This document shows positions 13,536-33,543 of a stretch of DNA of 64,000 bases, one piece after another. A program made the translations under genes and the position numbers. The notes under the pieces are model-generated. The model had not been told where the DNA came from. It worked only from the letters and a program-made list of their open reading frames with translations, and did not search any database. Position 1 is the first letter of the stretch. Each line of letters opens with the position of its first letter. Where the stretch lies: NCBI GenBank assembly GCA_038212625.1, contig JBBQUH010000005.1:31483-95482 (forward strand), in the 5' to 3' direction. This stretch comes from Gemmatimonadales bacterium (GTDB lineage Bacteria > Gemmatimonadota > Gemmatimonadetes > Gemmatimonadales > Gemmatimonadaceae).

Positions 13536-13826
13536 TCAGGCGGTGGGGTGGTGTGGCACATCCACCTCACCGTCGGGTGGCGGCTCGTACGCGTAGGTCA
13601 TCACCATCGCCACGATCCACCCCAGAATCGTCCAGCCAAGCAGGAGGTTGATCGCGGTGATCGTCCAGCGGCGGCGGCTGCGCCGCGTCCAGGCCAACAT
13701 CGTGGGCAGCCCATAGAGCAGCACCAAGACCACGATCATGACCCCACCCTTGGGGAGGCCGCCGCCGGTATACCGGGCCGGCGCCTCGGTCAGTTGGGGT
13801 GCCGCGCGCAACAGAAGCGAGAACAT
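13536..13826 (-). CDS. Superinfection immunity protein (T4 Imm-like small membrane protein)
   Basis: LYGLPTMLAWTRR...ITAINLLLGWTILGWIVAMV matches the Y.LP...A..R...I...NL.LGWT..GW pattern; start uncertain. Confidence 0.75.
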   Translation of the reverse strand: MFSLLLRAAPQLTEAPARYTGGGLPKGGVMIVVLVLLYGLPTMLAWTRRSRRRWTITAINLLLGWTILGWIVAMVMTYAYEPPPDGEVDVPHHPTA

Positions 13827-13923
13827 CCCGTAATATATTGGCGGGACCGCCGGGAACCTGCGGGCCGTGACATTCGCGCCAGCTCGCGCCATCATTCCTG
13901 CTTCCTCCCATTAACCAGCCGCC

Positions 13924-14640
13924 ATGTCCGCAGCTCGTCGCGATTTCCTCAAGCACGCCGGACTCGGCGCGGCCGCACTGGCCGGACTCCCCTCCGCGCT
14001 ACACGCCGCCGCCCGCACGTCGGTCGCTACTCCTGAATTTTCATCGGTCGACTGGCAGCAGGGTGTCGAACAGCCGCAGCCTCAGGCCGTTGACACGACG
14101 TGGACGGAGAAGCTCACCGGCAAGTACAAGGCGGTCTTCGACGTGCCGGAGATTCACGGTGGCACCGGGGTGTGGCGCGGGGGGCTCTGGCTCAATCACT
14201 ACCGCGACGTACTCAAGGCCCAGCCCAGCGATCTGAACTCGGTGATCGTGATCCGCCATGCGGCAATCCCGTTGATCATGTCTCAGGCGTACTGGGAAAC
14301 GTACGATGTGGCAAAGGCCAACAAAGTGGTGCACCCGATGACCGACAAGAAAACGCAGCGCAATCCGGTGCTCATGACCCCGACCGAAGACGGTCTCACG
14401 GGCATGCTCGCGGGCCTCACGCTCGACAAGCAAATGGAGCGCGGCGCGATCGTGCTGGCGTGCGGTATGGCGTTCAGTTCAGTGATCCGCACCGTGCGAG
14501 CGAAAGACAAACTGTCAGCCGCCGACGCGCGCACGAAGGCGATGAGCATGGTGCATCCGGGCGTGATCATGCAGCCAAATGGCATCTTCGGCGTGACGCT
14601 GGCCCAGCACCACGGCTGCGTGTTCGTGGCGGCTAGTTGA
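13924..14640 (+). CDS. Tat-exported protein of unknown function (possibly DsrE-like fold)
   Basis: ARRDFLKHAG twin-arginine signal; KAVFDVPE, VIRHAA, LACGMA, HHGCVFV. Confidence 0.65.
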   Translation: MSAARRDFLKHAGLGAAALAGLPSALHAAARTSVATPEFSSVDWQQGVEQPQPQAVDTTWTEKLTGKYKAVFDVPEIHGGTGVWRGGLWLNHYRDVLKAQPSDLNSVIVIRHAAIPLIMSQAYWETYDVAKANKVVHPMTDKKTQRNPVLMTPTEDGLTGMLAGLTLDKQMERGAIVLACGMAFSSVIRTVRAKDKLSAADARTKAMSMVHPGVIMQPNGIFGVTLAQHHGCVFVAAS

Positions 14641-14775
14641 GAGCTAAGAGCTCAGAGCTCAGAGCTCAGAGCTACAGCTGTTTCGCTCTTAGCTCTTAGC
14701 TCTTAGCTCTTAGCTCTTAGCTCTTAGCTCTTAGCTCTTAGCTCTTAGCTCTTAGCTCTTAGCTCTTAGCTCCTA
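14638..14775. repeat. Inverted heptamer tandem array 1
   Basis: 5 x T(G/A/C)AGAGC (14638-14672), central palindrome ACAGCTGT (14674-14681), 12 perfect GCTCTTA (14685-14768) plus GCTCCTA; spans stop codon to stop codon of two convergent genes. Confidence 0.97.
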
Positions 14776-16152
14776 AACCGCATCCGACAGGCTGGAGAAC
14801 GTAAAATCCCTTACCTTGATTGGCGGCATATACGTCGCGCCGCCGGCGCTCAGATTTTCTGTGGCGTTGATCCGGATGGATTCGCCCATTGCTTCCAGAT
14901 TGTTCAGAAAGAAAATGGGCGACTCGTTGAACCGGAAATTCTTGATCGGGCGCGTGACTTTGCCGTTCTCGATCAGAAAGGTGCCATCGCGAGTGAGTCC
15001 GGTATACAGAATCGTTCGTGGGTCCACACCGCGGATATACCAGAAGCGCGTGACCAGAATCCCGCGTTCGGTGCCTTTGATCATGTCGGCGAGACTGGTC
15101 GTGCCGCCGAGCATGCGGAGCGCGCCGCGTCCGCCCGAGCGCGTGGGCTGGACGCCTTGTTTTTGCGCCCAGAATCGGTCGTAGTTGAGGTTCTTCACCA
15201 TGCCGTTTTCAATCCACGTGACCTTCTCCAACGGCATCCCGTCGCCGTCGTAGCCACCGTTGGTGCTGGCGGAGTCGGCGGGATCGCTGAGGAGCGTCAC
15301 GCGCTCATCGACTACCTTGAGCCCGAGCTTGTTGCCGCCGCCGGGCTTGGAGAAAAATGACCGGCCTTCGTCGGCCTGACGCGCCTGCATGGAGTTGGCG
15401 ATCAGCTGCACCAGGTTTCCAACGGCGGTTGGCTCGAGGATCGTGGTGTAGCGGCCCGGCTCGATGGCGACCGGGTTTCGCGACGCCTTCGCCTTCTCCA
15501 CTGCGGTGGCCGCCACGCGCTGCGGATCGAGTTCGCTGAATGCGTTGCCGTCGGTGCAGGCCCACCCCGAGCCCGTACCATCGGGCGAGCGTACGGTCGC
15601 GGTCATCGTCACCGACGAGCTCGAATCGTACGCGAACAGTCCCTTCGAATTCGCCAACGCCGACGCGCCGGCGCGGCATTCGATGAAACCGGTGGCAATC
15701 AGCTCGTTGGCACGCGCGAGTTCGGCCACGATCGTCGCCGCCGCCGCACGTTCGGCCGGATCGGGGAGCGAAATAATCCGTTCGCGCGCGGCCGCATAGG
15801 TCTGCGGCCCGAGTTCCGGCATCCGCTCCGGATTGGGCGGTACCAGCTTGGCGATTTCGAACGCCTGACGCGCCGCCGCCGCCAGCGACGCCTCATCGAG
15901 GCGATTGGTGTTCACACTGGCCGCACGATTCCCGGAGTACGCCGTGATCGTGACCTGTGTGTCCTGGTTTTCGCCCGACGTGGTGACCTGATTCAGCGCG
16001 AAACGCGTGTCCGCGCGCGCACTGCTGTTGATCGACACGCGCGTTTCTTCGGCTGGAGAATTCCGCAGCGCGCGCTGCGCGATCTCCTGCGCCTCGGCGC
16101 GGGTCAGAATCCCCGCCGGTGCGTAGAGGGAACGAGGCCCGAGGTCGCTCAT
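14773..16152 (-). CDS. TldD/PmbA family protein (TldE-like, non-catalytic subunit)
   Basis: TRFALNQVTT, IEPGRYTTILEP, GILVTRFWYIR, TGLTRDGTFLIENG..NFRFNES; no HExxxH seen. Confidence 0.88.
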   Translation of the reverse strand: MSDLGPRSLYAPAGILTRAEAQEIAQRALRNSPAEETRVSINSSARADTRFALNQVTTSGENQDTQVTITAYSGNRAASVNTNRLDEASLAAAARQAFEIAKLVPPNPERMPELGPQTYAAARERIISLPDPAERAAAATIVAELARANELIATGFIECRAGASALANSKGLFAYDSSSSVTMTATVRSPDGTGSGWACTDGNAFSELDPQRVAATAVEKAKASRNPVAIEPGRYTTILEPTAVGNLVQLIANSMQARQADEGRSFFSKPGGGNKLGLKVVDERVTLLSDPADSASTNGGYDGDGMPLEKVTWIENGMVKNLNYDRFWAQKQGVQPTRSGGRGALRMLGGTTSLADMIKGTERGILVTRFWYIRGVDPRTILYTGLTRDGTFLIENGKVTRPIKNFRFNESPIFFLNNLEAMGESIRINATENLSAGGATYMPPIKVRDFTFSSLSDAV

Positions 16153-32502: not shown

Positions 32503-32658
<156 letters not shown>

Positions 32659-32661
<3 letters not shown>

Positions 32662-32826
32662 GAGCTAAGAGCTAAGAGCTAAGAGCTAAAAGTTAAGAGC
32701 TAAGAGCTAAGAGCCAAGAGCTAAGTGCTAAGTGCTAAGTGCTCTCAGCTCTCAGCTTTGAGCTCTGAGCTCTGAGCTCTTCGCTCTTAGCTCTGAGCTC
32801 TGAGCTCTTAGCTCTTAGCTCTTCGC
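32659..32826. repeat. Inverted heptamer tandem array 2
   Basis: 12 TAAGAGC-like units (32659-32742) followed in the same 7-bp register by 12 GCTCTTA-like units (32741-32824); between convergent DUF2256 and anti-sigma genes. Confidence 0.97.
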
Positions 32827-33543
32827 CACCCCCACCACGCGCTCGCGCCCGCTCACCACTGCCCCGCCCGGTGCTTCCACGGTCAGCACGAACATGATGG
32901 CCTCGCCGACGGGTAGGCGGGCGGCGAACGGGATCACCACCTCGGTGGCGCCGGCGGGGATGTCGAACACTCCGCCATCCACGGGATACCGACTATCGCG
33001 CGCCTTGTCGAAGATCCAGAGCTGATACTGTGAGCGCTTCGCGTCGTTGGGCGCGAGTCCCACCACCCGCATGACCCCGCGTTGCGCCGCGGCACTCCAC
33101 ACCACGTCACCGCCGATCATGGGTGACACGTCGTCCGTGGACGAGGTCCAGGCCAGCTTGAGAAGCGCGCGATCGTTCTGCAGCAGTGAGTCGCGGAGCG
33201 CACCCGCCGAGCGTGCGGGGACTTGCGGTGTCGCTGCGAGGGGAGCGGGAGGCGACGTCTCGCGCGCGCGGCGCCCCGGTGTCCCCACCCACAGCCCGAG
33301 CACTGCCGCGGCGGCGAGCCAGCCACTCCACAGTCGCCACGACGCATCAGGTGGGCGCCGTCGTGCCGTCGCCAGTGACGCGTCGGCGCGTAGCAACCGT
33401 TCACCGGCGGCGGCGATTTGCGCCGCGAGCGCTGCGGGTAGCGCACCGTGCTCCGGATCGGCGGTCGACGACGATAGCGCCGCCGTGAGTTCTCCCACCA
33501 GCAACTCGTGACCGGTCGGGGTGGCTCGATCTGGTGCCTTCAT
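32815..33543 (-). CDS. Anti-sigma factor, RskA family
   Basis: Single TM (WLAAAAVLGLWVG), then YQLWI..PVDGGVF...FVLTVEAPGG; ATGA-coupled to the ECF sigma. Confidence 0.85.
   Translation of the reverse strand: MKAPDRATPTGHELLVGELTAALSSSTADPEHGALPAALAAQIAAAGERLLRADASLATARRRPPDASWRLWSGWLAAAAVLGLWVGTPGRRARETSPPAPLAATPQVPARSAGALRDSLLQNDRALLKLAWTSSTDDVSPMIGGDVVWSAAAQRGVMRVVGLAPNDAKRSQYQLWIFDKARDSRYPVDGGVFDIPAGATEVVIPFAARLPVGEAIMFVLTVEAPGGAVVSGRERVVGVAKS

Follow-up and report, generated by a model that had tools for sequence, protein, structure and literature searches.

Tandem heptamers and the small proteins encoded in 23S rRNA intervening sequences (IVS) have both been known for about 30 years, without an accepted function or origin for either. 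ORF-bearing IVS of Coxiella burnetii and Leptospira encode S23p/PF05635 proteins, and their terminal inverted repeats form a long stem around the PF05635 gene; in the published Coxiella S23p-IVS, tandem heptamers (GACAGAT) of strain-variable copy number lie next to the ORF (PMC4990558). These IVS are inserted in helix 25/45 of 23S rRNA and are excised by RNase III. STRR heptamers are reported from cyanobacteria (Mazel 1990), and heptamers are the commonest class of long simple-sequence repeats in many bacteria (Mrazek 2007, as summarised in PMC4679880). Named STRR units of heterocystous cyanobacteria are CCCCAGT, TTGGTCA and CAACAGT. Such repeats are dispersed and intergenic, with lineage-specific units of patchy phylogenetic distribution that often contain a stop codon and change copy number in 7-nt steps, and TAACTGA repeats are found in Beggiatoaceae, Cyanobacteria and Bacteroidetes (PMC4679880). 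REP/BIME/REPIN elements, with their RAYT transposases, are abundant extragenic palindromes at the 3' ends of genes, between convergent or co-directional genes and rarely between divergent ones, transcribed as hairpins that protect mRNA 3' ends, with a few gene-bearing loci against many gene-less copies. Bidirectional Rho-independent terminators place a strong hairpin between convergent stop codons, and MITEs (for example Correia, or IS630/Tc1-derived) are small gene-less hairpin-forming repeats present in tens of copies, often near gene ends.

In a 64,000-nt stretch of a Gemmatimonadales genome (hereafter the window), the 138-bp gap between two convergent genes at 14638-14775 was found to consist entirely of a 7-bp repeat arranged as a hairpin (array 1). 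The left arm (F; 14638-14672, +) comprises five units, TGAGAGC, TAAGAGC and three TCAGAGC, read in the sense of the upstream gene. It is followed by a 12-nt centre, TACAGCTGTTTC (14673-14684), containing the palindrome ACAGCTGT (14674-14681), and by the right arm (R; 14685-14775, -), which comprises 12 perfect GCTCTTA units (14685-14768) and one GCTCCTA (14769-14775) and reads TAGGAGC (TAAGAGC)12 on the minus strand. The plus-strand gene (13924-14640) encodes a 238-aa protein with an RRDFLK motif and a weak TAT_signal hit, and its TGA stop (14638-14640) is the first three bases of the array. The minus-strand gene (14773-16152) encodes a 459-aa PmbA/TldD-family (TldE-like) protein with PmbA_TldD_1st/2nd/3rd domains, and its TAG stop (14773-14775, CTA on the plus strand) is the last three bases of the array. 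Tandem repeat analysis with TRF gave 4.9 copies at 96% identity and 12.6 copies at 100% identity with a score of 176. The 14-mer TAAGAGCTAAGAGC, allowing up to one mismatch, occurs 25 times in the window against 0.02 expected from shuffled sequences. The arms are 88-91% complementary in about eight sliding registers, and the predicted RNA folds have energies of -77.3 kcal/mol (z -5.9) on the plus strand and -77.0 kcal/mol (z -4.2) on the minus strand.

To exclude an assembly artefact, we examined Logan contigs from three independent metagenome assemblies, which reproduce both junctions. Contigs from SRR19962010 and SRR5468153 end in GCGGTT followed by TAG, GAGC and three TAAGAGC units, and one from SRR15443080 ends in GCTAGT followed by TGAGAGC, TAAGAGC, TCAGAGC and TCAGAG, with the same variant order. 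The repeat structure reported in the preliminary description is confirmed, including its extent from stop codon to stop codon and its unequal arms (5 versus 13 units). Its statement that a 7-nt period places stop codons in all three frames is also correct, and this holds on both strands (TAA in one arm, TAG in the other). However, its claim of a single 7-bp register holds only loosely, as tiling from 14638 reads the second arm as TCTTAGC and 138 is not a multiple of 7.

Array 1 is not unique. The 4.09-Mb genome (G000) contains at least 56 loci with about 721 units, and this unit is nearly exclusive among its period-7 arrays. We counted 238 exact 28-mers in G000 against 0 in 40 relatives. All 35 two-armed loci run F to R, reading TAAGAGC inward from both sides. 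The preliminary description had proposed enrichment in convergent gaps and anchoring at stop codons as a test, which came out positive. Of 46 loci, 21 lie in convergent gaps (46% against a 15.4% background, p = 1.1e-6, a lower bound because small genes were missed; gene calls came from our own rough codon model), 22 in same-strand gaps and 3 in divergent gaps. Offsets of 0, 7, 14 and -7 relative to stop codons dominate and none lies 13-200 nt upstream. In addition, 23 proteins end in array-encoded KS* or LRAKS* tails, and arrays overwrite C-terminal codons; at a FabF-like gene the tail is replaced rather than truncated, and most congeners have a 20-40 nt gap without a hairpin at that site. On the other hand, about 20 loci have one arm only and arms are often very unequal, so that a perfect hairpin is not strictly maintained, and about three single arms (C10, C29 and C74) break the orientation rule. 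The centres differ between loci and resemble units used by other species of the genus. Variants within arrays are polar, and the arms are not mirrored; mirror symmetry, which would have been evidence for hairpin-templated correction, was not seen.

Congeners lack the TAAGAGC unit but have hairpins at the orthologous gap. Orthologues of the Tat-signal gene in 10 congeners align to the native C-terminus, and those of the TldE-like gene end at the same residue (SSLSDAV*). The gap holds a hairpin in 9 of 10 congeners retrieved and in the sister species G017, including ordinary GC-rich terminators and other long hairpins. In G017 it holds (TAGGGAT)4 and (CCCTAAC)12. G017 has its own dispersed family, (TAGGGAT)n, which obeys the same polarity and stop anchoring, and its arms sometimes flank, and extend, textbook bidirectional terminators.

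The same repeat arms also enclose a small gene. Four split loci of G000 have arms 0.5-1.5 kb apart, and their inserts are unique and unrelated, so that a composite transposon was rejected: one is a PF05635 gene, one an IS630-type transposase with its own ends, one an AAA ATPase gene, and one has no recognisable ORF. The PF05635 gene (E 3.5e-19; 1e-32 with our own HMM) lies between F15 and R14 on C58, a layout of (TAAGAGC)14, PF05635 ORF and (GCTCTTA)15 that is exactly that of the Coxiella IVS. PF05635 is present in 25 of 26 congeners, and the unit around a PF05635 gene matches the dispersed unit of the same genome in G000 and in five congeners (G017, G012, G021, G020 and G009). However, only 1 of about 56 loci carries the gene, the second PF05635 copy of G000 has different (14-mer) flanks, and a tree of PF05635 proteins shows no clustering by arm unit. 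The gene could thus be a passenger that prefers hairpin loops, as the IS630 copy on C19 shows is possible. Duplex energies computed for the cassette flanks were implausibly large, and only the sequences were used.

Compared with ORF-bearing IVS, array 1 shares the long stem of terminal inverted repeats and the tandem heptamers, but has a 12-nt centre without an ORF, lies between protein-coding genes instead of in 23S rRNA, has far longer arms of pure heptamers and belongs to a family of about 56 dispersed copies. No RNase III gene was detectable in G000 with two Pfam models (PF14622 and PF00636) and a motif scan, or in any of 26 genomes of the genus with PF00636. Array 1 resembles STRR-type repeats in its head-to-tail units and many dispersed intergenic loci, but its unit is none of the named ones and its host is a 64.6% GC non-cyanobacterial lineage with best collinear matches to Gemmatimonadales MAGs. 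Moreover, its arrays are inverted pairs of strict polarity flush with stop codons, whereas TAACTGA repeats in the Beggiatoaceae genome studied are direct repeats mostly just upstream of start codons, and a link to a PF05635 cassette is not described there (PMC4679880). It shares with REP elements the extragenic 3'-end position, rarely in divergent gaps, but has no conserved 20-40 nt palindromic core, its arms being heptamer arrays of variable number, and the associated gene encodes a four-helix-bundle protein rather than a transposase; no Y1 transposase (RAYT; PF01797) was found in G000, an assembly 94% complete, while controls were positive in 6 genomes. It occupies the position of a bidirectional terminator, yet the stem is flanked by coding sequence without T or A runs, is AU-richer with a mismatch every 7 nt, and is many times longer than needed. 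In contrast to MITEs, it has expandable arrays instead of fixed terminal repeats, and no conserved interior, target-site duplication or matching transposase. A literature search for TAAGAGC/GCTCTTA returned nothing relevant, and Rfam gave only sub-threshold matches to eukaryotic miRNA-precursor hairpins.

Based on these data, we propose with moderate confidence that array 1 is a gene-less member of a species-specific family of heptamer-armed hairpins, (TAAGAGC)n - short variable centre - (GCTCTTA)m, occupying the DNA directly behind gene ends, and a gene-less relative of the PF05635 cassettes. The analysis itself establishes the number of loci, the strict polarity (the purine-rich TAAGAGC arm comes first in the direction of transcription, so that convergent transcripts see the same structure), the flushness with stop codons, which arrays often supply or overwrite, the independent change of copy number in the arms with the newest homogeneous TAAGAGC runs outermost, and the sharing of units between PF05635 cassettes and dispersed hairpins. 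In the absence of RNA data, it is inferred that the element is transcribed as the 3' UTR of both genes, that it folds into a stem of about -77 kcal/mol, and that this stem would block 3'-exonucleases and/or stop or insulate convergent transcription, as REP/BIME hairpins and bidirectional terminators do. The lack of a U-tract means that it is not a canonical intrinsic terminator; a fold-energy survey of all convergent gaps was uninformative, being dominated by long GC-rich gaps and missed genes, and showed only that canonical terminators also exist in this genome. In this view, arrays grow and shrink by replication slippage, purifying selection on the coding sequence sets their outer boundary at the stop codon, and a lineage without RNase III can tolerate very long perfect RNA stems. 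The PF05635 cassette is the obvious candidate for the autonomous or partner copy.

The interpretation offered in the preliminary description is thus supported in part. A long hairpin in the 3' untranslated region of both genes is supported, recent slippage fits the long perfect runs and non-mirrored arms, and the comparison to STRR repeats without assignment to a named element is fair; its suggested role as a bidirectional terminator or in 3'-end protection remains inferred. The suggestion of an RNase III substrate is not supported, and the absence of detectable RNase III genes makes it unlikely. It did not recognise the species-specific family with unit turnover across the genus, the strict polarity, the overwriting of C-terminal codons or the enclosed PF05635 gene.

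A more far-reaching hypothesis, which is not excluded but which we regard as doubtful, is that heptamer-armed hairpins and the PF05635 gene form one previously unrecognised kind of self-propagating element. The gene-bearing cassette, the same thing as the classic ORF-bearing IVS, would be the autonomous form, its protein would recognise the 7-nt arrays in RNA or single-stranded DNA and seed, homogenise or protect them, and the dozens of gene-less hairpins would be non-autonomous offspring co-opted as 3'-end structures. Unit replacement between sister species would then be turnover of the element's specificity, and loss of RNase III would let the stems grow very long. This would explain both STRR-type repeats and the function of IVS proteins.

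Alternatively, the arrays may be neutral or selfish satellites produced by polymerase slippage, with no role in RNA metabolism and no real connection with PF05635, persisting where they do no harm and flush with stop codons only because selection on coding sequence stops expansion. This possibility, which we consider unlikely, is consistent with the abundance of heptamers among long simple-sequence repeats (PMC4679880), the unequal and non-mirrored arms, the quick turnover of units between species and the tolerance of array-encoded tails by some proteins. Moreover, (TAAGAGC)n occurs as plain direct arrays in many phyla: a scan of a genome collection, made without a control heptamer, gave more than 111 stretches, about half of them in Acidobacteriota. 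These are single direct arrays, often mixed with sibling units (TAAAAGC, TAAGGGC, TAACAGC), and are not sense-anchored (15/87), so that one universal (TAAGAGC)n element across phyla was rejected. However, slippage alone cannot place one unit at about 56 dispersed loci, nor explain the 35/35 polarity or the recurrence of the same rules with a different unit in G017. It adds units but does not delete the unique spacer between stop codon and array, yet no arm starts 13-200 nt after a stop, and the match between cassette and dispersed units in six genomes is unlikely by chance.

A less likely alternative is that the heptamers are phased binding sites on double- or single-stranded DNA, for example for the pentameric PF05635 protein or a nucleoid or replication factor, marking the ends of transcription units, with the RNA hairpin incidental. 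Single arms exist, every unit contains the palindrome AGCT, and the polarity could equally reflect a strand-specific DNA process such as transcription-replication conflict or R-loops behind the stop codon. However, no direct evidence supports this, a 7-bp period is out of phase with the DNA helix, two-armed loci predominate (35 of 56), and the positional equivalence with terminator hairpins in congeners points to RNA. Mobilisation in trans by a classical transposase targeting stop-codon-like TA sites, as for REPINs or MITEs, is improbable. The REP/BIME-like distribution, the hairpin form, units beginning with TA and the IS630-family DDE_3 transposase between two arms on C19 are compatible with it, but no Y1 transposase was found, single arms are anchored at stop codons without a partner, and the IS630 copy is single, has its own different terminal repeats and looks like a secondary insertion. 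Templated synthesis by a telomerase-like or retron/DRT-like reverse transcriptase that copies a 7-nt RNA template repeatedly, with the product integrated behind genes and PF05635 as an accessory factor like Avd of diversity-generating retroelements, to which PF05635 proteins are described as homologous, would fit the perfect long runs and species-specific units but is very unlikely, as no RVT_1 reverse transcriptase was found in the four heptamer-rich genomes (G000, G017, G012 and G014) while six heptamer-poor congeners have one, and mixed A/C/G variants within arrays look like slippage plus point mutation.

Several species-specific units within one genus, strict rules of polarity and stop anchoring, orthologous positions at which gain, loss and replacement can be followed, and one gene-bearing cassette per unit as the candidate source make this genus a clean natural experiment. 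If the arrays act as terminators or mRNA stabilisers, they are a fast-evolving, copy-number-tunable layer of 3'-end control, and if the PF05635 link is causal, it would define a new class of mobile or self-homogenising element. The arrays also rewrite protein C-termini (23 proteins here), break short-read assemblies (about 10 contig ends here) and confuse gene callers at stop codons.

A second member of the family, array 2 (32659-32824), lies in the same window. It begins at the TAG stop (32659-32661) of a DUF2256 gene (32503-32661, +; 52 aa; PF10013, E 1.2e-21) with TAGGAGC and TAAGAGC, and comprises about 12 F-type units, including TAAGTGC and other variants, followed by about 12 R-type units; the array overlaps the last codons (AKS*) of the convergent minus-strand gene at 32815-33543.

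Window positions 14638-14775 consist of the units TGAGAGC, TAAGAGC and three successive TCAGAGC, followed by TACAGCTGTTTC and then by (GCTCTTA)12 GCTCCTA. TRF scored the two halves as period-7 arrays of 4.9 copies (96%) and 12.6 copies (100%, score 176). On the left the array is flanked by a 238-aa ORF with an RRDFLK twin-arginine (Tat) signal, whose TGA stop is the first triplet of the array, and on the right by a 459-aa PmbA/TldD-family ORF on the minus strand (the TldE-like gene), whose TAG stop is the last triplet. Between the amylase-family gene and the Tat gene lies a small minus-strand gene of 119 aa (13536-13895), which carries an Imm_superinfect (PF14373) annotation in an independent assembly. 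The 14-mer TAAGAGCTAAGAGC, with up to 1 mismatch allowed, occurs 25 times in the window against 0.02 expected. The short arm pairs with the long arm at 88-91% complementarity in about eight sliding registers, and both transcripts are predicted to fold at about -77 kcal/mol (z = -5.9 and -4.2). Furthermore, contigs from three unrelated sequencing runs carry the identical proteins and run into the same first units, including the G-A-C-C variant order on the Tat side and a synonymous difference in one strain, indicating that the array is real and shared by several strains. The preliminary description, which had the gap filled from stop codon to stop codon by inverted heptamer arms, is correct in all essentials.

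The window (contig C5, 31483-95482) belongs to a 4.09-Mb assembly of 150 contigs and 64.6% GC, here called G000, in which almost every period-7 array uses this unit. Collinear nucleotide matches of 67-74% suggest that G000 is a Gemmatimonadota lineage. We counted 56 loci, 91 arms and 721 units, with A as the second base in 536 units, C in 141, G in 35 and T in 9. About ten loci lie at or within a few hundred bases of contig ends (C3, C15, C36, C39, C51, C53, C60, C74, C76, C82, C123 and C127), and Logan contigs stop after 3-4 units, so that the repeat fragments short-read assemblies and may hide further cassettes, and the count is a lower bound. All 35 two-armed loci have the order (TAAGAGC)n then (GCTCTTA)m, an arrangement that is its own reverse complement, so that a transcript entering from either side meets the purine-rich arm first; the opposite order never occurs.

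To place the loci relative to genes, we built a rough codon-model gene caller, which predicted 2822 genes. Of 46 classifiable loci, 21 are in convergent gaps (background 15.4%, binomial p = 1.1e-6), 22 are between co-directional genes and 3 are in divergent gaps. Because the caller misses small genes, for example the DUF2256 gene that ends in TAG just before the second array of the window, the convergent count is also a lower bound. Each arm was then read in its TAAGAGC sense. In 53 of 88 non-edge arms, the stop of the upstream gene lies between -12 and +21 of the first unit, with offsets dominated by 7 (13 arms), 14 (10), 0 (9) and -7 (5), while no arm has a gene end 13-200 nt upstream; about five further arms abut real genes that the caller missed. 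At offset 0 or -7, the outermost unit usually keeps the native stop (TGAGAGC, TAGGAGC). At offsets 7 and 14, the array itself encodes the last residues, so that the repeat rewrites the C-termini of 23 proteins, of which 13 end in KS and 10 in LRAKS; in the window, this concerns the minus-strand gene 32815-33543. On contig C58 (113-5106), two tandem paralogous genes of about 815 aa both end in LRAKS and are each followed by an array, meaning that either the duplication included the array start or both genes acquired it. On the far side of the arrays, next to a downstream start codon, 0-90 nt of ordinary spacer usually remains. The centres are short and not conserved, and the arms are not mirror images of one another. 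Long pure TAAGAGC runs lie outermost, whereas TCAGAGC variants are enriched in the innermost three positions, pointing to independent slippage in each arm with the youngest units on the gene side.

The exact 28-mer occurs 238 times in G000 and never in 24 congeners or 16 genomes of the same order, and looser patterns found only 2-9 hits in three congeners, mostly the C/G variants. The Tat/TldE gene pair is syntenic in ten congeners (genomes of the genus are numbered G000-G024 and G041), and both proteins align to their native C-termini, showing that the array truncated nothing. In nine of these ten congeners the gap holds a hairpin of unrelated, lineage-specific sequence, and in one it is only 13 nt long. 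Some of the hairpins are plain GC-rich terminator stems (G013, G004), others are 100-360 nt stems built from other short units, and one (G005) contains a short relative of the G000 unit. In congener G017, examined separately, the same gap holds (TAGGGAT)4 ... (CCCTAAC)12, starting one base after the TldE stop. G017 has its own genome-wide family of this unit, with 136 pattern hits against 15 in G012, 9 in G014 and 0 in G000. Across 20 sampled G017 loci, all seven two-armed loci again have the same forward-then-reverse order of arms, and ORFs that stay open for about 300 codons (to the edge of the flank analysed) end at offsets 0/7/14 or a few bases before the first unit. In two of these loci the arms flank a textbook bidirectional terminator, A5-GCCCCCGCGAGCA...TGCTCGCGGGGGC-T4. 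Read on the other strand, for example at C1:92374-92455, the G017 unit is (CCCTAAC)n / (GGGTTAG)n, which looks telomere-like and is able to form G-quadruplexes; as the G000 unit has no G-runs, G-quadruplex potential is not a general property of these families. In G013, which uses 14- and 12-mers, a large nested inverted structure, (ACGCGTTGGCAACT)x3.7 ... (CCCGCGTCAGCG)x8.5 ... (GCGTAGTTGCCAAC)x4.3, was found on contig C37 at about 68,400-68,700, with a predicted fold of about -222 kcal/mol. At a second G000 locus, behind a FabF-like gene, most congeners have only a 20-40 nt gap without a hairpin, and the orthologues end in LV[LF][KR]xx(x), so that the LRAKS tail of G000 replaces a native tail of similar length. 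These data indicate that hairpins of this kind are gained, lost and replaced quickly at gene ends throughout the genus, each species using its own unit.

Four G000 loci have arms 0.5-1.5 kb apart, and their inserts are unrelated. One insert is a gene for a PF05635 "23S rRNA intervening-sequence protein" (E = 3.5e-19; nearest solved structure 2gsc). In the sense of this gene, the layout is the stop of one neighbour, (TAAGAGC)14, a 5' UTR of about 140 nt, the ORF whose TAG stop is the first unit of (TAGCTCT)15, and the stop of the other neighbour; these arms are among the longest and purest in the genome. In a second locus (C19:14252-15398), a single-copy IS630-family transposase (DDE_3 plus HTH domains) with its own terminal repeats sits exactly between an arm of 8 forward units and an arm of 7 reverse units. 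The remaining two pairs of long arms, with 18 forward and 15 reverse units (C86:9102-9787) and 17 forward and 15 reverse units (C60:364-1695), enclose, respectively, 686 bp with no recognisable ORF or PF05635 remnant, and an AAA_16 ATPase gene with a MarR-like C-terminus.

We examined PF05635 genes across the genus. PF05635 occurs in 25 of 26 genomes, at 1-9 copies each, and in the loci examined the gene is typically bracketed by inverted short-period arrays. The bracket unit equals the unit of the dispersed gene-less hairpins of the same genome in G000 (TAAGAGC), in G017 (TAGGGAT / CCCTAA), in G012 (GAGTAGG / CTCCCTA, which is its TAGGGAG family), in G021 (TGAAAGC / GAGAGCT), in G020 (CTGCGGTC, as in its TldE-gap hairpin) and in G009 (CAGTTCC, likewise). 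Eight species carry an orthologous copy next to a conserved GTPase gene, putatively ychF as judged from its N-terminal motif alone. Each of these copies has different arms, indicating that the arms turn over in place while the gene is inherited vertically. Some arms are layered, with different units in concentric shells (G005, G014), and the centres of G000 arrays (TACTGCTGT, ACAGCTGT) resemble units used elsewhere in the genus, which is consistent with older layers lying inside. Only two PF05635 copies exist in the G000 assembly. The second (C7:92675-93073) is flanked not by TAAGAGC arms but by two direct copies of a self-complementary block of about 120 nt built from 14-mers (CCCGAGTTACCGGT-like), a second cassette architecture that is also seen in G006 and G020. 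The published Coxiella IVS, the type example of an S23p/PF05635-bearing element, has a 28-bp terminal stem, two or three strain-variable GACAGAT heptamers before the ORF, and RNase III cleavage at the first repeat (PMC4990558). Thus, the array at 14638-14775 is best described as a gene-less relative of these cassettes.

As to what drives the family, the flush boundary at stop codons is best explained by arrays spreading until selection on coding sequence halts them, with slight intrusion where C-termini tolerate it; however, the step that removes the unique spacer is not explained by slippage alone. A simple co-descent in which the PF05635 protein specifies the unit is not supported, since PF05635 proteins do not cluster by arm unit, although these proteins are very divergent. 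The IS630-type transposase on C19 is single, has its own ends and looks like a secondary insertion into the centre of a pre-existing array. Other classical mobilisers are absent, as no Y1/RAYT transposase was found in G000 and no reverse transcriptase in any of the four heptamer-rich genomes.

The preliminary description had further read the element as a long 3'-UTR hairpin serving both transcripts, possibly as an RNase III substrate, and as reminiscent of STRR heptamers. This interpretation is partly supported, as the element belongs to a 3'-UTR hairpin family that is anchored at stop codons and enriched in convergent gaps, but it is probably not an RNase III substrate. Searches with PF14622 and for an ERLEFLGD-type signature motif found no RNase III gene in G000, and PF00636 gave 0 hits in 26 of 26 genomes of the genus (16 of them at least 90% complete), while the controls were positive in 8 standard bacteria. 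A bacterial genus without RNase III would be unusual in itself, and we infer that its absence may be what lets such long perfect RNA stems persist.

While the distribution, polarity and stop-codon anchoring of the arrays are read directly from the sequences, transcription of the element and any function in RNA metabolism are inferred from its position and structure alone. The element sits where congeners have terminators, and both transcripts are predicted to fold it strongly. By analogy with REP/BIME hairpins, it should block 3' exonucleases and may stop or insulate convergent transcription, although it lacks U-tracts and canonical terminators exist elsewhere in the genome. The strict purine-first polarity shows that the direction of transcription matters, either for function or for the mutational process; examples would be avoiding an exposed C-rich stretch behind the ribosome, or R-loop-prone purine-rich RNA. 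Heptamer STRR-type repeats and IVS-type hairpin cassettes are already known; what is new here is a form of these that behaves like REP/BIME elements without RAYT.

Outside the genus, (TAAGAGC)4 occurs in more than 111 stretches of the genome collection, a count made without a control heptamer to gauge its excess over chance. About half of these stretches are in Acidobacteriota and several are in Gemmatimonadales, and others are in Vibrio, Paenibacillus, Bacteroidota, cyanobacteria and other groups. They are single direct arrays that are not sense-anchored. Many are mosaics with sibling heptamers that share the GCTAA core (TAAAAGC, TAAGGGC, TAACAGC), and very long TAAGAGC arrays of 46-47 units occur in unrelated bacteria, on the chromosome of Paenibacillus sp. 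MBLB4367 (locus L086) and at a further locus of the collection, L104.
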